Shown here: positions 1-7,358 of the stretch, one piece after another
Position numbering within the stretch: the first letter of the stretch is position 1
How the letters are laid out: every line of letters starts with the position of its first letter
The notes under the pieces: model-generated
What the model saw: the letters and a program-made list of their open reading frames with translations, nothing else
Told to the model about the DNA's origin: nothing
Database searches by the model: none
Made by a program: the position numbers and the translations under genes
Source: a virus
Lineage: Duplodnaviria > Heunggongvirae > Uroviricota > Caudoviricetes
IMG/VR virus record: IMGVR_UViG_2703718800_000016
Span: 1 to 7,358 of that record
Direction: 5' to 3' (one strand)
Length of the DNA stretch: 7,358 nucleotides

Positions 1-1242
1 ATGGCGAGAAAAACACACCCATTAACCACAGTGCAGATCAAAGCAGCCAGACCAGCGCAAAAGGAGTACACCCTGCAGGACGGCGGAGGGCTTTTTCTCC
101 TGGTCAAACCGTCTGGATCAAAACTCTGGAGATTTTCCTACTACCGACCATCGGACAAAAAAAGAATATTGCTGAGTTTTGGATCGCTTGAAGATGTTTC
201 CCTGGCTGATGCCAGAAAACGCCGTAGCGAGTACAGGACGTTAATCAGTGCCGGAACTGACCCGCAGGACCACGAGAGGCAAAAAAGAGAGACAGAGGCC
301 CGAAGACAAGGGAACACGTTCGAAAATGTGGCGGCGGCATGGTACCAGGTGAAAATCAGCCAGAATCTGGCCCCCAACACGATTAAAGACATCTGGCGTT
401 CGCTGGATAAATATGTATTCCCGTTCATCGGCAACACGCCAATAGATACCCTCACCGCCCGAAGGTTCGTTGAAGTGCTTACCCCCATCAAGGAGCGCGG
501 CAACCTGGAAACACTCAAGCGGGTTTTACAGCGCGTTAATGAGGTAATGGATTACGCCGCCAACAGTGGGCTGATTGATGCCAATCCGGCTATGAATGTG
601 CGTAAGGCGTTTCCCTCACCTGTAAAAAAACATATGCCAACAATCCGCCCCGAACAGCTGCCCGAGCTTATGCAGGCTTTATCAGTATCGGCAACAGAAC
701 GGCAGACCAGATTACTGATTGAATGGCAGTTACTGACCGTAACCCGTCCCGCCGAAGCGTCATCAACGCGGTGGGATGAAATCAACCTGGACGCGAAGCA
801 ATGGACGATACCTGCCGGACGCATGAAGATGCGCAGGGATCACGTTATCCCGCTTTCCGGTCAGGCTATGGCGGTGCTGGAGGCCATGAAACCAATCAGC
901 CACCACCGCAATTACGTTTTCCCAAGTCTGAAAGACCCACAGCAGCCGATGAACAGCCAGACAGCTAACGCAGCATTGCGGCGTATGGGATTCGCTGGCG
1001 TGCTGGTGTCTCATGGATTACGCGCCATATTCAGCACAGCAGCGAACGAGGAAGGATTCGAGCCGGACGTAATAGAGGCGGCACTTGCCCACGTCGACAC
1101 CAACGAAGTTAGACGGGCATACAACCGGAGCAACTACATAGAAAAACGCATCGTGCTGATGCGCTGGTGGGGCGAATTTGTCGAGGCTGCGGCGACGGGC
1201 GTAACCCTCGCCAGTGGTAAAAGGGGTATCCGAGCCGTGTAG
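1..1242 (+). CDS. int: Tyrosine recombinase / site-specific integrase, P4 (IntA)-like
   Basis: 413-aa ORF. The N-terminus (MARKTHPLTTVQIKAARPAQKEYTLQDGGGLFLLVKPSGSKLWRFSYYRP) is typical of the P4-integrase N-terminal domain. The C-terminus carries the catalytic signature HGLR ... LAH ... RRAYNRSNY (His-x-x-Arg, His, Tyr nucleophile). Recognition is from memory, not a search. Confidence 0.95.
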   Translation: MARKTHPLTTVQIKAARPAQKEYTLQDGGGLFLLVKPSGSKLWRFSYYRPSDKKRILLSFGSLEDVSLADARKRRSEYRTLISAGTDPQDHERQKRETEARRQGNTFENVAAAWYQVKISQNLAPNTIKDIWRSLDKYVFPFIGNTPIDTLTARRFVEVLTPIKERGNLETLKRVLQRVNEVMDYAANSGLIDANPAMNVRKAFPSPVKKHMPTIRPEQLPELMQALSVSATERQTRLLIEWQLLTVTRPAEASSTRWDEINLDAKQWTIPAGRMKMRRDHVIPLSGQAMAVLEAMKPISHHRNYVFPSLKDPQQPMNSQTANAALRRMGFAGVLVSHGLRAIFSTAANEEGFEPDVIEAALAHVDTNEVRRAYNRSNYIEKRIVLMRWWGEFVEAAATGVTLASGKRGIRAV

Positions 1243-1319
1243 CTGTACAGAAAACCAGTAAAAACTACGAAAACCATGTAAAACCGTCGTATAATTGCAT
1301 CAAATTTAACGACAAGGCC

Positions 1320-1571
1320 GTGAAACATGAAACCGTTAAGATGCAAAAAAATATCAGATGCAATTGCGACGGGCTGCAACTGGCCCTGATGGTTCAGCAT
1401 GAATTTTGGTCAACCTACGATCCGGAGGACAGAACGACGGCCCCATCAAAAAAACAGGTAGTAGATTTTCTGGTATCCCGTGGCGCTTCCAGAAATCTGG
1501 CGGTAAGTATTGATAAGGTCGTACGTCCGGCATCTATGAAGATCGGAGGCAGGCCTAAAAAATGGCGGTAA
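1320..1571 (+). CDS. Hypothetical small protein (start uncertain: GTG 1320, or ATG 1341 / 1389)
   Basis: 83-codon open frame between int and alpA with no convincing Shine-Dalgarno at any candidate start. It is followed 10 nt later by a strong intrinsic terminator, which mildly supports transcription through it. The product has no motif I recognise. Confidence 0.3.
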   Translation: MKHETVKMQKNIRCNCDGLQLALMVQHEFWSTYDPEDRTTAPSKKQVVDFLVSRGASRNLAVSIDKVVRPASMKIGGRPKKWR

Positions 1572-1580
1572 CAATCCTGG

Positions 1581-1606
1581 AAGCGGCAGAAATGCCGCTT
1601 TTTTTA
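1581..1606 (+). terminator. Rho-independent terminator
   Basis: Perfect 7-8 bp stem AGCGGCA (1582-1588) / TGCCGCT (1593-1599) with a GAAA tetraloop, followed by a run of seven T (1599-1605). Confidence 0.75.
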
Positions 1607-1632
1607 TAATTCCATTTCAAATCATCAATATA

Positions 1633-1720
1633 AAAAACGGTGTATACCGTTTAAAAACGGTGGGAACTGTTTTTACCCATATCCGATGATTTACCGTATT
1701 TGTCACCGGAATACACCGGA
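1633..1720 (+). promoter_or_regulatory. Repeat-rich region upstream of alpA (putative operator / promoter region)
   Basis: AAAAACGGTG occurs twice (1633-1642, 1654-1663). ACGGT-gtat-ACCGT is an inverted repeat (1637-1650). CACCGGA occurs twice, 10 bp apart (1704-1710, 1714-1720). A further ACCGT lies at 1693-1697. I could not find a canonical sigma70 -35/-10 pair by eye. Confidence 0.3.
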
Positions 1721-1738
1721 TTCACAAGGTAAATCACG

Positions 1739-1945
1739 ATGGAAGCAATCAGAAAAATTATCTTTCGCCAGGAAGTAAAAAAAATTATCCACATCAAGGC
1801 AGACAGCACGCTGCAAAGCATGATCAACGCCGGAGAATTTCCGCAGGGTTTTCGCGTTGGTTTACGCCGTCGCGGATGGTATGAGGATGATGTGTTGTCC
1901 TGGCAGAAAGAACGCGAAGAGGAAGCACGCGGAACGGCTGCTTAA
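1739..1945 (+). CDS. alpA: AlpA/Vis-family phage regulatory protein (MerR-like HTH; excision/activation regulator)
   Basis: 68-aa product IIFRQEVKKIIHIKADSTLQSMINAGEFPQGFRVGLRRRGWYEDDVLSWQ matches the AlpA pattern R-x-x-E-V ... S-x-S-T-L ... G-x-F-P ... G-x-R ... W-x-E-x-x-V-x-x-W. AAGG lies upstream of the ATG. Position directly after int is as in CP4-57 and P4-like elements. Confidence 0.85.
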   Translation: MEAIRKIIFRQEVKKIIHIKADSTLQSMINAGEFPQGFRVGLRRRGWYEDDVLSWQKEREEEARGTAA

Positions 1946-2324
1946 CGGGTATCACAGATATGACAAACACGAAAAAAGCGGCCCCGATATGGAGCCGCCT
2001 TTCTGAACAATTAACCCGCTGCGCCTTATGTGTATGTGATCCCAAACATAAGCACGGGGATGATAGCCGCTATCAGGCTGGTGGGCAATGCAATCAGTCT
2101 GGTTCAGTTCGTTGCCATACCTGCAATGAGCGCTTTTCCCTGTACTCTTTAAGGAATTGCTCAAGGGCAAAAGCACATGGTGCGAATCTTTCTGATTCAT
2201 GCTCTATCTTTCTGCGCCGTCTTTTTCGTGCAGGTGATGTTTTTTCGGTTGATTCTTCGTTGGTCATTGTGTGCGCCTGTAAAGCAATGCGCCGTAGTAC
2301 CTCACACCACGGCGCTGGTGATGG

Positions 2325-2504
2325 TTACTCCTGCTCTTTGGCCTTGCGGCGCTGGCGGCGTTTGATTTCGCCTTTAACGGCAGTAACTATAAATTGCGCT
2401 TTGCTTTCACCTTCATCTAAATTTTTTTCTAAGTCTGCAACAACATCATGCGGGAATCTGGCATTTAACTGTTGCGACTTATTATTTGTTGAACCTGTTG
2501 CCAT
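2325..2504 (-). CDS. Ribbon-helix-helix (Arc/MetJ-like) DNA-binding protein, putative repressor
   Basis: 59-aa product from the internal ATG at 2504 (rc of CAT 2502-2504): MATGSTNNKSQQLNARFPHDVVADLEKNLDEGESKAQFIVTAVKGEIKRRQRRKAKEQE. It resembles the Arc repressor fold pattern (strand QQLNARFP, helix HDVVADLEKNL, helix SKAQFIVTAVKGEIKRRQ). Good Shine-Dalgarno GAGG 8 nt upstream on the minus strand (AGAGAGGATTCAGTA-ATG). The ORF track extends the frame to 2669 (114 aa), but that N-terminal extension looks non-protein-like and would leave no promoter space. Confidence 0.6.
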   Translation of the reverse strand: MATGSTNNKSQQLNARFPHDVVADLEKNLDEGESKAQFIVTAVKGEIKRRQRRKAKEQE

Positions 2505-2687
2505 TACTGAATCCTCTCTAAGTTGGTGCGATTCAGTATACACAAAAAAATTCAGAGAAAAAGGCTTGAAGTGCGATTCACATGCTGATAGGTTAAAAAC
2601 AGATGGTGCGATGCACCAAATAACAACGCCCCGCAGTGCGGGAACACATACGGGGCGTCTAACCAACAACGTAAACTAGGAGCCGTT
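2505..2687. promoter_or_regulatory. Divergent intergenic control region with three 10-bp direct repeats (putative RHH operator) and hairpins
   Basis: GTGCGATTCA at 2526-2535 and 2571-2580 (identical) and GTGCGATGCA at 2606-2615, spaced 45 and 35 bp. The third copy sits in the palindrome GGTGC-GAT-GCACC. An 8-bp inverted repeat ACGCCCCG (2625-2632) / CGGGGCGT (2652-2659) encloses CCCGCA-G-TGCGGG. The region lies between the divergent RHH gene and icd-like gene 1. Confidence 0.45.
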
Positions 2688-2885
2688 ATGGTTGCCGTAA
2701 ATCATATACCACACCTTGTACACACACAAACGGCCTTTGTGTGGCGTTTTCTGGCACTGAGTGCCGGAGAATCTCAAATCATCCACGTAACCGCCTGGAC
2801 GGAACGCGAAGCGCGTAACCGTTGCCCGTCCGGTTGTGTTGCTGTATTCGCCGCCCGTATTCGTCAGGGGTCACATCATGCGTAA
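2688..2885 (+). CDS. Host cell division inhibitor Icd-like protein (paralog 1)
   Basis: 65-aa product ending ...FVWRFLALSAGESQIIHVTAWTEREARNRCPSGCVAVFAARIRQGSHHA. The motif set W-R-F ... VTA-x-TEREAR ... F-x-ARI-x-QG matches what I remember of Icd-like proteins of P1 and P4-like prophages. Shine-Dalgarno TAGGAG 5 nt before the ATG. Confidence 0.75.
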   Translation: MVAVNHIPHLVHTQTAFVWRFLALSAGESQIIHVTAWTEREARNRCPSGCVAVFAARIRQGSHHA

Positions 2886-3171
2886 AAACCGCTTGCAAAA
2901 AATTATCACGGGGCTGTATGCTTCCCGCGTCACCCACATGGTGACCGGGTTTGACAGCCTGAATACTACAGCGGACAGCCGCTTACATTCCGATATGCGG
3001 TTTTTTTGTGTCCGTAAACCTACCCATACCCGCATTATGGCGGGGCGTAACGGGGGAGCCTTTGCGCTCGCTGGTTCCTGTAGTGCCAGTCTGTCAACCC
3101 TGTTACGTCTCGCCACCATGTTTGACAGCGTAGTAGCGAGACTCCTTAATTTCACTACAGGAGCCTTTCAC

Positions 3172-3345
3172 ATGGCTGTATCCACACGCCCTTATTTTAT
3201 CTGGCGCTTCATGCAGTGCCATGAAAAACAAACCTCACTCTTTACCGTCACGGCTGCCACTGAGCGCGAAGCACGCGCGCAGCTGCCGCACGCACATCTG
3301 ATTTTTGTCGCCCGTATTCGTCAGGGGGAAACCTATGCACAATAA
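3172..3345 (+). CDS. Host cell division inhibitor Icd-like protein (paralog 2; may instead be the C-terminal domain of a longer ORF starting at 2878)
   Basis: 57-aa product MAVSTRPYFIWRFMQCHEKQTSLFTVTAATEREARAQLPHAHLIFVARIRQGETYAQ aligns with paralog 1 (FIWRF / VTAATEREAR / FVARIRQG). AGGAG at 3159-3163 lies 8 nt before ATG 3172. A candidate promoter TTGACA (3122-3127) - 17 bp - CTTAAT (3145-3150) has a perfect -35 but a weak -10. The same frame is open back to ATG 2878, so a 155-aa fusion cannot be excluded. Confidence 0.6.
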   Translation: MAVSTRPYFIWRFMQCHEKQTSLFTVTAATEREARAQLPHAHLIFVARIRQGETYAQ

Positions 3346-3565
3346 AACCACACCGGACGCAGCAGAAGAAGCAATGCAAATACTGATACGTGCGCTCGTT
3401 GATGTTACCCACATGGTGGAGATTATGGAGAGAAAATCACAGTCGGAGCACGACAAAAGAAAACTTAAAACAATAAAAATAATTGCCAAAAACTCGCTGA
3501 TAAAAGTTACAGACATCCTTAATGAGGACATTAAAAGAATAAGGGAGAAAATTTGTGATGCATAA
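3335..3565 (+). CDS. Hypothetical small protein (AT-rich cassette gene 1; lysine-rich, predicted helical)
   Basis: 76 aa: MHNKTTPDAAEEAMQILIRALVDVTHMVEIMERKSQSEHDKRKLKTIKIIAKNSLIKVTDILNEDIKRIREKICDA. Shine-Dalgarno AGGGGG (3323-3328) 6 nt before ATG 3335; overlaps the stop of icd-like paralog 2 by 11 nt. The antisense ORFs here are hydrophobic low-complexity artifacts. No motif recognised. Confidence 0.55.
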   Translation: MHNKTTPDAAEEAMQILIRALVDVTHMVEIMERKSQSEHDKRKLKTIKIIAKNSLIKVTDILNEDIKRIREKICDA

Positions 3566-3785
3566 AATCCCTTTTGAAGTATTAATCCACTCTGAAAACG
3601 CATTAATTAAAGCACGCGAAATGAATGCGTTGTTAATTAAATTAATTGAAGTGCCGGAAGGTGGTGAGGAATCAGGTGTATTAATGTTTGCAGCCATTCA
3701 GACATTACTATCGCCTGTTATTGATGAACTGGATAAGGCAATGGCAATTCACGAAAATAATAACGCGCCCCACACCGGAGAATAA
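3558..3785 (+). CDS. Hypothetical small acidic protein (AT-rich cassette gene 2)
   Basis: About 75 aa from ATG 3558 (the track starts at GTG 3555): MHKIPFEVLIHSENALIKAREMNALLIKLIEVPEGGEESGVLMFAAIQTLLSPVIDELDKAMAIHENNNAPHTGE. GGGAG lies about 10 nt upstream. There is an 8-nt start/stop overlap with gene 1 (ATGCATAA), suggesting translational coupling. Strongly acidic. No motif recognised. Confidence 0.55.
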   Translation: MHKIPFEVLIHSENALIKAREMNALLIKLIEVPEGGEESGVLMFAAIQTLLSPVIDELDKAMAIHENNNAPHTGE

Positions 3786-3790
3786 AAATA

Positions 3791-4090
3791 ATGAAACTTA
3801 AATATTCTGGCTTAACTGCCAGTGGCAACACTCACCCTAAATTTACGCGCGGTGATATTTACCGCGACCAGTACGGCGGCACGGTAATGATTAAGGGCGT
3901 GGCGGGACGGTGCGTAACTTACCGCCGTGAAGGTTACGAATATGATTGCGTGATGCCTGTTTATCAGTTCCGGCGTGATTTTTCTCTGGTACAGGCAGCG
4001 CCCCGCAGTAAACCAACCAGCAGGGAGAAAGCACGCGCCAATATTCAGGAAATAAGAAAGATGTTGAATGTATTCAGGGGTAAAAAATGA
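3791..4090 (+). CDS. Hypothetical small protein translationally coupled to the primase gene
   Basis: 99 aa (MKLKYSGLTASGNTHPKFTRGDIYRDQYGGTVMIKGVAGRCVTYRREGYEYDC...). GGAG lies 10 nt before the ATG. Its stop overlaps the primase start (ATGA at 4087-4090). GC content is normal, about 53% in a hand-counted 60-nt sample. By position it is analogous to the small genes preceding alpha in the P4 replication operon; that is inference only. Confidence 0.6.
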   Translation: MKLKYSGLTASGNTHPKFTRGDIYRDQYGGTVMIKGVAGRCVTYRREGYEYDCVMPVYQFRRDFSLVQAAPRSKPTSREKARANIQEIRKMLNVFRGKK

Positions 4091-5835
4091 AACTTGCACC
4101 GAACGTAAAAAAACAACCACGCGGAATAAAACACAAAGACACAGAGGTAATTATTTTCGCGGGTAGTGATGCGTGGGCACATGCAAAACAGTGGCAGGAG
4201 CAGGACGGCCCCGCATCCGGCGATAATGTGCCGCCTGTGTGGATTGGGCCAAATCAGCTTGCCGAACTTGATGCACTGAAAATTGTTCCTGATGGAAAAA
4301 AACGCGTAAGGCTGTACCAGGCCGGAGAACTGGATTTGGTGGAGACCAAAAAGATTGGTCAGAAGCTGGCGGCGGCAGATATTCAGGACGCAAATTTTTA
4401 CCCCGAAGGAATGCACGTCCAGAAGTGTGAAAACTGGCGGCGCTATCTGAATGCTGAGCGTGAAAATATTGCCGCAGGGCTTACCATGCCGGAGCAGAAA
4501 AATACGCAACTGGCACAAATGGCAGACAGTGAGCGCGCGCAGCTGCTTGCCGAGCGCTTTGATGGCGTTTGTGTGCATCCGGAAAGTGAAATCGTTCACG
4601 TATGGCGCGGCGGGGTATGGTGTCCGGTCAGCACAATGGAACTTAGCCGCGAAATGGTGGCGATCTATTCAGAGCACAGGGCCACTTTCAGCAAGCGCGT
4701 AATCAATAACGCCGTGGAAGCGTTAAAAGTTATTGCCGAACCAATGGGCGAGCCGTCCGGCGATTTGTTGCCGTTCGCCAATGGTGCGCTTGACCTGAAA
4801 ACGGGGGAATTTTCCCCGCACACGCCGGAGAACTGGATCACCACGCACAACGGCATTGAGTACACGCCACCAGCACCAGGGGAGAATATATGCGACAACG
4901 CGCCAAACTTTCATAAATGGCTTGAGCACGCAGCCGGAAAAGACCCGCGCAAGATGATGCGTATATGTGCCGCGCTGTACATGATTATGGCGAACCGGTA
5001 CGACTGGCAGATGTTTATTGAGGCCACCGGAGAGGGCGGTAGCGGTAAAAGTACATTCACGCACATAGCCAGCCTTCTGGCAGGGAAACAGAACACGGTA
5101 AGCGCTGAAATGACCTCACTTGATGATGCTGGTGGACGTGCGCAGGTTGTCGGGAGTCGTCTTATCGTCCTGGCTGACCAGCCGAAATATACAGGCGAAG
5201 GAACGGGCATCAAGAAAATCACGGGCGGCGACCCCGTGGAAATAAACCCGAAATATGAGAAGCGTTTTACGGCGGTAATCAGGGCGGTGGTGCTGGCTAC
5301 CAACAATAACCCGATGATATTCACCGAGCGGGCCGGAGGTGTGTCACGCCGTCGGGTGATTTTCCGGTTCGACAACATTGTAAGGGAGGACGAAAAAGAC
5401 AAGGATTTGCCGGAGAAGGTCGCGGCTGAAATCCCCGTAATTATCCGTCGCTTGCTGGCTAATTTTGCCGACCATGAAAAGGCACGGGCTTTATTACTGG
5501 AACAGCGCGACGGTGATGAAGCTCTGGCAATAAAGCAACAGACGGATCCGGTTATTGAGTTTTGCCAGTTCCTGAATTTTCTGGAGGAAGCACGCGGCCT
5601 GATGATGGGCGGCGGTGGCGATTCAGTGAAGTACACGACCAGAAACAGCCTTTACCGCGTCTATCTGGCGTTTATGGCATACGCAGGCAGGAGCAAACCG
5701 CTAAACGTGGCTGAGTTCAGCAAGGCCATGAAGCCAGCGGCAAAAGTTTACGGACATGAATATATTACGCGGAGAGTTAAGGGAGTAACGCAGACCAACG
5801 CAATTACAACTGATGATTGTGACGCGTTTTTATAA
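4087..5835 (+). CDS. Replication initiator: primase-associated SF3 helicase (P4-alpha / D5-like C-terminal NTPase; PICI Pri-Rep-like)
   Basis: 582 aa. Walker A GEGGSGKST and Walker B-like RLIVLADQP lie in the central region, matching the phage/plasmid primase P4-family C-terminal helicase domain. The classic P4 alpha primase motif EGYATA is absent, so the N-terminal domain is of uncertain type. Shine-Dalgarno GGGG 6 nt before the ATG. It is immediately followed by the iteron cluster. Confidence 0.9.
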   Translation: MKLAPNVKKQPRGIKHKDTEVIIFAGSDAWAHAKQWQEQDGPASGDNVPPVWIGPNQLAELDALKIVPDGKKRVRLYQAGELDLVETKKIGQKLAAADIQDANFYPEGMHVQKCENWRRYLNAERENIAAGLTMPEQKNTQLAQMADSERAQLLAERFDGVCVHPESEIVHVWRGGVWCPVSTMELSREMVAIYSEHRATFSKRVINNAVEALKVIAEPMGEPSGDLLPFANGALDLKTGEFSPHTPENWITTHNGIEYTPPAPGENICDNAPNFHKWLEHAAGKDPRKMMRICAALYMIMANRYDWQMFIEATGEGGSGKSTFTHIASLLAGKQNTVSAEMTSLDDAGGRAQVVGSRLIVLADQPKYTGEGTGIKKITGGDPVEINPKYEKRFTAVIRAVVLATNNNPMIFTERAGGVSRRRVIFRFDNIVREDEKDKDLPEKVAAEIPVIIRRLLANFADHEKARALLLEQRDGDEALAIKQQTDPVIEFCQFLNFLEEARGLMMGGGGDSVKYTTRNSLYRVYLAFMAYAGRSKPLNVAEFSKAMKPAAKVYGHEYITRRVKGVTQTNAITTDDCDAFL

Positions 5836-5849
5836 TTTTTTGTAAAAGC

Positions 5850-6073
5850 CCTCTACCCCATCTACCTGAATGAAATAAACGCATATTATTCAACATGATA
5901 AGTGGGTAGAGGGCTAGGTAGAAGGCTAATAAAACCTCTCTACCTCTTCTACCATGATTAAGATCGTTTGTGAGGGGCGGGTAGAGGATGGGTAGAGGGC
6001 CACGAAAGCCCTCTACCCATCTGAAAGCCGCGCCATTACTGACATGAAAGATGATTAGGTAGAGAGGTAGAGG
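5850..6073. repeat. Iteron cluster / putative origin of replication
   Basis: Eleven copies of the 8-mer GGTAGAGG or its complement CCTCTACC (core GGTAGA), arranged as adjacent pairs of alternating orientation at 5850, 5859, 5905, 5917, 5937, 5946, 5980, 5991, 6010, 6058 and 6066. They are separated by AT-rich spacers such as 5867-5904. Two longer units AAAGCCCTCTACCC-CATCT recur at 5845 and 6005. The cluster sits directly downstream of the primase/helicase stop. Confidence 0.7.
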
Positions 6074-6199
6074 AGGTGCACCACAACCTAAAACTTTTTA
6101 AACACGAGGGTAAAAATAAAAATGCACACATCAGGAAGATTTAACAAATCACTCAAAAAACGCAGAGACAGAACAGAACCGAAATATCGCGCGTTAGAC

Positions 6200-6401
6200 A
6201 TGACAGAGCACGCTTTAAAGGTGGCAATCAGAACGATAGACCGCCACGCGGGGGGAAGGATACGCGAAAGCACATCCCGAACTGATAAGCGCATTCATGA
6301 CCACGACGGCGGCAAATTTTGCCACGCTGACAGAACGGGAGATTGCCGAAGCGGAACAGGTAACAACCATCAACGTTAAAACCGGAGAGGTGGAATCATG
6401 A
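6200..6401 (+). pseudogene. Small protein gene apparently interrupted by a 1-nt frame change at a G6 homopolymer (6250-6255); may be an assembly/sequencing indel or a genuine frameshift
   Basis: The frame from ATG 6200 (MTEHALKVAIRTIDRHAGG...) runs into an arginine/glycine-rich, non-protein-like tail ending at 6379. The +1 frame from 6252 reads GEGYAKAHPELISAFMTTTAANFATLTEREIAEAEQVTTINVKTGEVES and ends with TGA overlapping the ssb ATG (ATGA at 6398-6401). Removing one G would give a continuous ~65-aa ORF coupled to ssb. The track ORF 6122..6379 is the upstream frame. Confidence 0.35.
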
Positions 6402-6808
6402 CAGCACAGATAGCAGCTTACGGGCGGCTGGTGGACGACCCGCAGGTAAAACAGACCAGCAAGGGCACACCAATGACGCTGGCACGTATGGCGGTATCGT
6501 TGCCATGTAGTCAGGCGCAGGATGGGCAGGCGACGTTATGGCTATCGGTCATCGCATTTGGTAAGCAGGCCGACTTCCTGGCTAAACATCAAAAAGGCGA
6601 CGTTGCCAGCGTATCCGGCACGATGCAGGTCAGCCAGTGGACCGGACAGAACGGGGAAACGCGGCAGGGTTATCAGGTTATTGCAGACAGCGTAATCAGT
6701 GCCCGTGCGGCACGTCCTGGCGGGAACAGACGCAAAACCACAGGCACACAGGGTAATCAGCCACCAGCGGGAGACGATGACCCCTACGGGGATAACATAC
6801 CGTTTTAA
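6398..6808 (+). CDS. ssb: Single-stranded DNA-binding protein (compact SSB-like)
   Basis: 136 aa. The OB-fold region aligns by eye to E. coli SSB ([26 protein letters not shown] vs [74 protein letters not shown] vs [49 protein letters not shown]). A short Gly/Pro linker leads to an acidic tip [11 protein letters not shown] (canonical SSB tip is DDDIPF). Shine-Dalgarno GGAGAGG 7 nt before the ATG. Confidence 0.85.
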   Translation: [136 protein letters not shown]

Positions 6809-6812
6809 GCAA

Positions 6813-6838
6813 CGAGTGACAGAAGCCTGAGCAATCCG
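6813..6838 (+). terminator. Possible rho-independent terminator after ssb
   Basis: Short stem AAGCC (6814-6818) / GGCTT (6828-6832) followed by a T-run (6832-6837). The stem is only about 5 bp with a 9-10 nt loop, so this is moderate at best. Confidence 0.4.
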
Positions 6839-6899
6839 GCTTTTTTACGGGTCCTCCTGGCGGGGTGGGCCTGAACACGGGGCGGAGGGGCGCGGAAAA

Positions 6900-7076
6900 A
6901 AGCGCATTTTTGTGATTTTATCGTCATCATCATCATGTGTGTAACCTGTTGTTTTTAATGTGGTTGATGCAAAAAAGATGATGATTGTGGTTAATTTTTG
7001 TTCGACATCTTTTAGCGTGACAGATTCTTTACAAAAAATCTGAGCTTGTTTTCTTCACCAGCGCGATGGGGGCACA
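6900..7076 (+). promoter_or_regulatory. AT-rich intergenic region with repeated TGTG-N-TT-N-AT motifs (putative regulated promoter for the downstream gene)
   Basis: TGTGATTTTA (6911), TGTGGTTGAT (6960) and TGTGGTTAAT (6986), with ATCATCATCAT and GATGATGAT runs. No clean sigma70 -35/-10 pair and no P2-type TGT-N12-ACA activator site was found by eye, so the promoter may be activator-dependent. GGGGG Shine-Dalgarno at 7068-7072. Confidence 0.25.
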
Positions 7077-7358
7077 ATGACAGAAGCCGAACTACTGGGA
7101 TTAATCCGCCGCGTTACCGGAATCAGCCAGCAGCATGACGAACAGGCCACGCAGCCGGACAGCGTGACCGCCGAAAATTATGTGCGTGTTGTTGCTGAGG
7201 TGATGCGCCGTGATGGTATCCAGCTTAATGATGTGGATATGCGCAACATACGGATCCGCGTTCTTGAAATGCTGGCCTACCGTCGCCGCGTGCAGACGTA
7301 CAGGGAAAAAGCAAAAATAACGTACCAGTGGAAGAAGCCGGAGCGATTACGGCGGTAA
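7077..7358 (+). CDS. Hypothetical protein (93 aa, helix-rich with basic C-terminus)
   Basis: Complete ORF (stop TAA at 7356-7358) with GGGGG 4 nt before the ATG. Product MTEAELLGLIRRVTGISQQHDEQATQPDSVTAENYVRVVAEVMRRDGIQLNDVDMRNIRIRVLEMLAYRRRVQTYREKAKITYQWKKPERLRR. No family recognised. Confidence 0.6.
   Translation: MTEAELLGLIRRVTGISQQHDEQATQPDSVTAENYVRVVAEVMRRDGIQLNDVDMRNIRIRVLEMLAYRRRVQTYREKAKITYQWKKPERLRR

Follow-up and report, generated by a model that had tools for sequence, protein, structure and literature searches.

A compact single-stranded DNA-binding protein encoded in the replication module of a reduced Gram-negative phage-inducible chromosomal island

What does a phage satellite gain from its own SSB, a protein that binds single-stranded DNA, for example in competing with its helper for the host replisome? 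This question is raised by a gene at 6398..6808 (+ strand) of a 7,358-nucleotide stretch of viral DNA (IMG/VR record IMGVR_UViG_2703718800_000016, positions 1 to 7,358; Caudoviricetes), which we refer to in full as the window. The window is a small (7.4 kb) Gram-negative phage-inducible chromosomal island (PICI) of the EcCICFT073 type, either a reduced member of that family or a derivative of it. The gene, ssb, lies downstream of the island's primase-helicase and iteron origin, in agreement with the satellite location that a preliminary description, made from the letters alone, had given it. On balance we favor the reading that its product is an accessory replication SSB of the PICI replication module which uses host partners. 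The gene as such is already known: RefSeq labels it as SSB, the model island EcCICFT073 contains it and the literature groups it with PICI replication genes (PMC10111431), and its novelty is low because it is an annotated and very common part of a known satellite family. Nevertheless, this additional SSB is found in one third of complete E. coli genomes and is under purifying selection.

The coding sequence is an ATG-initiated open reading frame (ORF) of 136 amino acids plus stop. It is preceded by a Shine-Dalgarno-like sequence, GGAGAGGTGG (6384..6393, + strand, read from the sequence), that ends 4 nt before the ATG; a comparison of island loci found the same motif before ssb in CFT073, Nissle and S19-651, and it probably serves as the ribosome-binding element of the gene. 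The product matches the Pfam SSB family PF00436 over residues 5–99 with 62.5 bits (cut-off 26), NCBIfam TIGR00621 (ssb) with 58.2 bits (cut-off 53.95) and, as a whole-protein profile match, PHROG 44 'single strand DNA binding protein' with an E-value of 1.4e-39. Searching the PDB by sequence returned SSBs exclusively (best E-value 2.6e-11). An AlphaFold2 model of the monomer, built on 32 family members, shows an OB fold in residues 1–103 with a predicted local distance difference test (pLDDT) score of 81–91 by block. It is composed of strands 2–11, 16–19, 25–36, 44–54, 69–82 and 88–102 with a helix (55–62) between strands 3 and 4, and the top Foldseek matches in the PDB are all bacterial SSB OB domains (E 2e-9, probability 1.0). 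The whole tail (residues 104–136) is unstructured in the model, with pLDDT below 50. From the model, Foldseek and the alignment to the host protein we delimit an OB-fold single-stranded DNA-binding domain (residues 1–103; 6398..6706, + strand), followed by a disordered linker of basic composition (residues 104–125; 6707..6772, + strand), where the pLDDT drops below 50 from residue 104 onwards, and an acidic C-terminal tip ending in IPF that can be read directly from the sequence (residues 126–136; 6773..6805, + strand). The SSB-family assignment of the preliminary description is thus borne out by domain models, PDB search, predicted fold and Foldseek alike, and its C-terminal letters match the translated ORF exactly. 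The analysis confirms a bacterial-type SSB with an OB fold, a short basic disordered linker and an acidic tip.

As host reference we used the SSB of E. coli K-12 (b4059, 178 amino acids; EcSSB), taken from the MG1655 record and aligned to the island SSB. Both proteins combine the PF00436 OB fold with a disordered tail and an acidic tip ending in IPF, at 29% identity over aligned residues. The island protein is compact, as had been noted beforehand: it has 136 residues instead of 178 and a post-OB tail of ~33 residues instead of ~65. The linker was rightly called short, with ~22 basic residues, disordered in the model, compared to ~56 Gly/Gln/Pro-rich residues in the host; relatives of the island SSB carry alternative linker sequences of 22–40 residues. 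Three of the four aromatic residues that stack on DNA in EcSSB (W54, F60 and W88) are present as W48, F54 and W81 in the alignment, and single-stranded DNA binding is predicted for the protein. The fourth, W40, corresponds to a shortened L23 loop and is aligned to C37, while the tetramer-interface residue H55 is aligned to L49. The protein is a member neither of the enterobacterial SSB model NF006533 (29.1 bits, far under the cut-off of 260) nor of the F-type plasmid SSB model NF010292/PRK13732 (24.7 bits, cut-off 265).

The C-terminal tip had been described as a non-canonical, variant acidic tip, which is overstated. The Ile-Pro-Phe-COOH anchor is retained, as are an aromatic residue at −7 and four acidic ones. 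Within a 32-sequence family alignment D132 (−5), P135 (−2) and F136 (−1) never vary, and D127, D128, P129 and I134 hardly do; position 133 (−4), an Asn in the window, is the one freely varying tip position and is occupied by D, N, G, E or S among relatives. The island tip differs from the host tip MDFDDDIPF. Most relatives, including the EcCICFT073 SSB, end in DDIPF as the host SSB does, and among 120 cluster representatives DDPYGDDIPF is the commonest ending, with DNIPF, DGIPF, DEIPF and DSIPF also present. The SSBs of sampled islands have D, N or G at −4 whatever the replicase type. The tip of the window is an ordinary allelic variant at the tip position under the weakest constraint, as judged from the family alignment, and the anchor for known SSB partners is intact. 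A library-wide search placed the protein in a large set of compact SSBs (322 clusters at 50% identity with E-values of at most 1e-10), and in the 150 best representatives IPF (23) and LPF (13) were the most frequent endings. SSBs encoded after TOPRIM/Zn-ribbon-DUF927 primase-helicases carry tails such as YDDDF, PPFDDETPF and PPFDDSIPL instead of IPF (loci L005, L006 and L007, about 10001–10444; L019, 7001–7462; L021, 7589–8035). Truly different tails are confined to this more distant SSB lineage, in which YDDDF, DDETPF and DDSIPL may represent a second docking mode or merely lineage drift.

The neighborhood of the gene bears on its role. With a linkage query that fused ssb to the final 600 bp of the primase gene, we found the two adjacent in about 509 genomes, the primase fragment being present at full coverage in 575 genomes; ~9/10 islands with this primase type therefore have an adjoining ssb. 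The order replicase, origin region, small ORF, ssb recurs in CFT073, Nissle, S19-651, O157:H7 strains, a capsid-forming PICI, a helper-embedded PICI and Klebsiella islands. The replicase itself changes: a DUF927 helicase lies upstream of ssb in O157:H7 86-24 and others, a RepA-family helicase in O157:H7 F6667 and a capsid-forming PICI, a D5_N primase in a helper-embedded PICI that interrupts the capsid gene of a prophage, and a TOPRIM/Zn-ribbon-DUF927 primase-helicase in an E. coli island, in Klebsiella islands and in a circular 22.8-kb Klebsiella element. SSBs that are 92–98% identical in nucleotide sequence to that of the window occur behind three of these replicase families (D5_N/DUF5906, DUF927 and RepA-helicase), and hence the SSB is not tailored to one replicase. 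Such independence of replicase type is more easily reconciled with a generic, host-facing role than with a replicase-specific one. The idea that the tip tracks the replicase type was rejected for IPF-type SSBs, as the same SSB follows three replicases.

Downstream of ssb, perC and/or proQ are often found in the sampled islands. The recurrent synteny with a ProQ/FinO-family gene and a PerC-family regulator (L011–L016, 9001–10196; L025, 4501–5696; L026, 4501–6091; L020, 6992–7878) pairs an RNA chaperone gene with an SSB gene in satellites. In one strain a remnant ssb-perC-proQ block is left among insertion sequence elements.

The lineage is common and conserved. Of 5426 complete E. coli genomes, 1784 contain DNA homologous to ssb, almost always shortly behind an island replicase and origin; copies are full-length in 1675 genomes, and 2325 of 2327 ssb-homologous places in these genomes are chromosomal. 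The exact protein occurs in NCBI on 5 contigs (e.g. KYT01939.1) and falls into a cluster (90% identity, 1200 members) that bears the name 'single-stranded DNA-binding protein'. Pairwise Nei-Gojobori comparisons of the OB domain between island SSBs, at synonymous distances (dS) from 0.03 to more than 1, gave ratios of nonsynonymous to synonymous substitution (dN/dS) of 0.06–0.29. The gene is maintained by purifying selection, and this together with its occurrence in 1784 genomes shows that it is not a chance ORF. Across 50,697 phage records no SSB relative exceeded about 35% identity. For this reason a recent phage origin of the island SSB was rejected, and the clade is a lineage specific to satellites and islands. 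Its members come only from islands of Escherichia, Shigella, Klebsiella and relatives; cross-genus breadth is under-sampled here, as a single-protein query of genome contigs gave 6 loci, of which 3 (Klebsiella) were useful.

How could such a protein act? In the sequence of events that we consider, the regulatory and replication steps follow published work on EcCICFT073 and we infer the SSB steps. A lambdoid helper would induce the island, the rightward operon would be transcribed and ssb expressed with it, and the island would excise. The island primase-helicase would then open the iteron origin, and the island SSB would coat the exposed single strands via its OB fold and the stacking residues W48, F54 and W81. 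Its host-like tail, with an acidic stretch and Ile-Pro-Phe-COOH, would dock host SSB-interacting proteins, e.g. the chi subunit of DNA polymerase III or DnaG. The host replisome would subsequently copy the island, and the helper terminase would cut the adjacent cos-like site. The SSB would be a booster rather than an essential initiator and would matter if host SSB becomes limiting during joint replication of helper and island; its benefit is likely quantitative, e.g. under such limitation. The host partners and the benefit to replication are predictions of this scheme. A generic host-facing role is supported by the fold, the stacking residues, the tip anchor, the position next to replicase and origin, the independence of replicase type, the selection on the gene and its retention in a minimal island: ssb is intact in an island that has lost capsid, decoration, terS/rpp and perC genes. 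In the literature, Mageeney et al. assigned 'Primase, SSB and DUF5906' to the replication category of Gram-negative PICIs because these genes colocalize with mapped origins (PMC10111431).

Several points weigh against an accessory replication SSB with host partners. Fillol-Salom et al. demonstrated in 2018 that the rep gene and ori of EcCICFT073 suffice to keep a thermosensitive plasmid in DH5alpha, so that with host SSB available the origin can fire without the island SSB; deletion of pri-rep in EcCICFT073 greatly reduced transfer, and SSB is unmentioned in that study (PMC6092414). Our literature search found no functional study of a PICI SSB. About 1/10 genomes with this primase type show no adjoining ssb. 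The short basic linker is unlike that of the host SSB and, as W40 and H55 are not conserved, the binding mode of the island SSB may differ from that of EcSSB, as may its oligomeric state; bacterial SSBs are typically homotetramers, or dimers of chains with two OB folds, and bind single-stranded DNA with high affinity.

One competing explanation corresponds to the retargeting proposed in the preliminary description: the tail could have diverged so as to recruit the island primase-helicase or a helper protein, and not host partners. The short basic linker and the departure from the host tip MDFDDDIPF would fit such a private adaptor, as would the endings DDETPF, YDDDF and DDSIPL after TOPRIM/Zn-ribbon-DUF927 replicases. 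However, SSBs that are more than 92% identical at the nucleotide level and share the IPF tip stand behind three unrelated island replicases, which leaves retargeting by the tip unsupported. The host-partner anchors P−2, F−1 and D−5 are invariant, and the differing residue, −4, is under the weakest constraint. Since the divergent tips vary together with the entire SSB lineage, co-inheritance explains them equally well. We regard this explanation as unlikely. A further reading, in which the −4 residue and the short basic linker tune the partners of the SSB and perhaps also its visibility to Retron-Eco8, AbpAB, DARNA and DRT10 while the DDDF, ETPF and SIPL tails provide a second, replicase-directed docking, seems very doubtful to us; if it were true, the ssb allele would help to set the cells in which the PICI replicates. 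Another possibility is a defence-related role: the protein could mask single-stranded DNA, act as a decoy against sensors of SSB or single-stranded DNA, or set the host range by triggering them. It had been stated beforehand that phage SSBs trigger defence systems, and the literature agrees, with activation of Retron-Eco8, AbpAB, DARNA and DRT10; the satellite-specific clade, with a best phage identity of 35% in the 50,697 records, would also be compatible with such a function. Yet PADLOC returned no family match for the SSB or its neighbors, apart from a marginal mad3 match for the primase, the gene belongs to the replication module instead of an accessory hotspot, its syntenic partners are replicases and not defence genes, and we found no literature support. 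A defence role is accordingly improbable.

The remaining explanations concern the helper phage, recombination and decay. The SSB could poison helper replication, either because it titrates away the partners of host SSB or because it enters mixed oligomers with it, since PICI genes downstream of the origin often mediate interference (PMC6739421) and a host-like tip could compete for partners. When Fillol-Salom et al. expressed the post-ori genes of EcCICFT073 singly from pBAD18 in 2019, lambda plaquing dropped with c1503 (RppA) and with no other gene, and deletion of c1503 restored lambda (PMC6739421). The set presumably included ssb, although the tags c1494–c1498 are not named in the paper's text. 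With 29% identity to host SSB and H55 replaced, mixed tetramers are unlikely, and interference with the helper by this protein is in our view highly improbable. The SSB could instead mainly aid concatemer formation or strand annealing by helper recombinases, and not replication from the origin. Phage ssb genes are often paired with genes for single-strand annealing proteins (PMC5779228), a study of phage ssb genes beside inducers of Staphylococcus aureus pathogenicity islands and not of an island SSB, and cos packaging needs concatemers. In the sampled islands, however, no annealing-protein or recombinase gene adjoins ssb, the constant neighbor being replicase plus origin, which makes a recombination or repair co-factor quite unlikely. 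Finally, ssb could be a non-functional passenger, a decaying gene in a degraded island: packaging and interference genes have been lost and the upstream small ORF is frameshifted. But the ORF of ssb is intact, the OB-domain dN/dS of 0.06–0.29 extends over dS values up to more than 1, full-length copies are kept in 1675 genomes and the anchor residues of the tip are invariant; decay is therefore very unlikely. The accessory replication SSB with host partners is the explanation that we retain.

The rest of the window supports the classification of the element. A gene with the integrase domains of tyrosine integrases (Pfam) occupies one end (1–1242), and an alpA-type regulator of 68 amino acids (1739–1945, + strand) follows downstream in the same orientation, an arrangement by which PICIs are recognized. 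The regulator matches PHROG excisionase/regulator families (2.5e-6) and is 97–100% identical to the helix-turn-helix regulator of the Nissle and S19-651 islands; its match to Pfam AlpA is weak at 17.9 bits, under the cut-off of 21. Further downstream, a YlcI/YnfO-family gene (2325–2669, − strand) is faced by two overlapping Icd-like ('host cell division inhibitor') ORFs on the opposite strand (2688–3345, + strand). Within the Icd-like region lies a C4 antisense RNA (3033–3120, + strand; matched to the whole model Rfam RF01695 with 72.3 bits, gathering score 45), an immunity RNA of the P1/P4 type; C4/isrK matches in Gram-negative PICIs have been noted before (PMC10111431). The stretch from alpA to the DUF4222 gene (3791–4090) is highly divergent among islands that are otherwise alike.

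The island replicase, pri-rep (4087..5835, + strand), encodes a primase-helicase of 582 amino acids with Pfam D5_N, DUF5906 and Pox_D5 domains and a TIGR01613 match (P4-family primase C-terminal region). It matches the DNA primase family PHROG 864 with 2.6e-167 and has 89% amino acid identity to the CFT073 and Nissle proteins. An iteron-type replication origin follows (5845..6078) with the repeats GGGTAGAGG and CCTCTACCC in both orientations, made up of the repeat families D1–D5 and the inverted pairs I1–I15. This layout agrees with the published PICI ori, which consists of two iteron sets 3′ of rep (PMC6092414), and pri-rep followed by an iteron origin is an order by which published PICIs are recognized. 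The earlier placement of ssb 'right after the origin' was nearly correct: the gene is just downstream of the iterons (5845–6078), but a small ORF intervenes between ori and ssb (6122..6379, + strand; 85 amino acids, PHROG 1231, unknown function). This ORF carries a +1 frameshift: the G-run at 6250–6255 is G6 compared with G5/AG4 in CFT073 and Nissle. The S19-651 ORF has the same extra G and the RefSeq label 'frameshifted'. In CFT073 and Nissle the homologous ORF runs into the start of ssb (ATGA), an overlap lost in the window because of the extra G.

A scan for terminators after ssb found none; a hairpin at ~6820–6848 is not claimed as one, being no better than shuffled sequence (z = −1.1). 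The segment 6842..7044 (+ strand), directly behind ssb, is 86–88% identical to unannotated DNA of lambdoid Shiga toxin (Stx) phages of types Stx1 and Stx2, and in VT1-Sakai its counterpart lies between Rz and the ORF that precedes the large terminase, which is where the phage has its cos region. The segment in the window is a candidate cos site, and the resemblance suggests Stx-type lambdoid phages as helpers of this island. The last ORF (7077–7358) encodes 93 amino acids. Between ssb and this ORF (window 6808–7077) there is no capsid homologue, head-decoration gene, terS/rppA or perC, and the packaging/interference module by which PICIs are recognized downstream of ori (capsid homologue, Rpp or TerS) is missing from the window. 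About 3.2 kb are absent after ssb relative to Nissle, and an equivalent stretch relative to CFT073 (compare L002, 16158–19395, and L003, 9422–12835). Because the packaging and interference genes are absent and the cos-like segment alone is left, we classify the window as a reduced member or derivative of the PICI family: a pared-down PICI in which integration, regulation, replication, ssb and a helper-like cos are left, with no known gene for interference or packaging redirection. Over its whole length the window best matches, at 97.7% identity, an island of E. coli S19-651 that lies in the adeP gene. Induction, replication and high-frequency transfer that depend on a helper have been established by experiment only for EcCICFT073 and a few others (PMC6092414).

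Two of the ssb-carrying elements named above can be described more closely. One (L018, 441–686 and 11810–12598) interrupts the major capsid gene of a prophage, fragments of which flank it at either end. It belongs to the helper-embedded PICIs reported in PMC10111431, and an abortive-infection family gene is among its genes. The other (L021, K. pneumoniae NZ_CP033626.1, 22.9 kb) is deposited as a non-mobilizable plasmid and has the gene order of an integrase-bearing PICI-like island, with genes for HTH, AntA, DUF4222, Icd-like, primase-helicase, ssb and perC plus a tape-measure gene. This 'plasmid' may be an excised circular satellite.

Compared to known systems, the closest relative is the SSB of EcCICFT073 (E. 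coli CFT073, C_RS06995, WP_000126698.1), which has the same length of 136 amino acids and 97.8% amino acid identity; the identity is likewise 97.8% to the RefSeq-annotated S19-651 SSB and 73% to the Nissle SSB. Both genes occupy the same place after primase-helicase, iteron origin and small ORF. Relative to the EcCICFT073 tip, GGDDPYGDDIPF, the window has D instead of G at −11 and N instead of D at −4, with an equal acidic count. In CFT073 ssb is followed by perC, capsid, decoration and rppA genes, whereas none of these is present in the window. With the phage SSBs of PHROG 44 the island protein shares the same general role within a replication module. Conjugative plasmids of the F type offer another parallel, as they too bring an extra SSB with OB fold and acidic tip on a mobile element beside the essential SSB of the host; the F SSB is partly able to replace host SSB. 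The plasmid genes, however, are located in the leading region and their products act on transferred single-stranded DNA, whereas the PICI ssb adjoins replicase and ori and PICI DNA enters the cell double-stranded.

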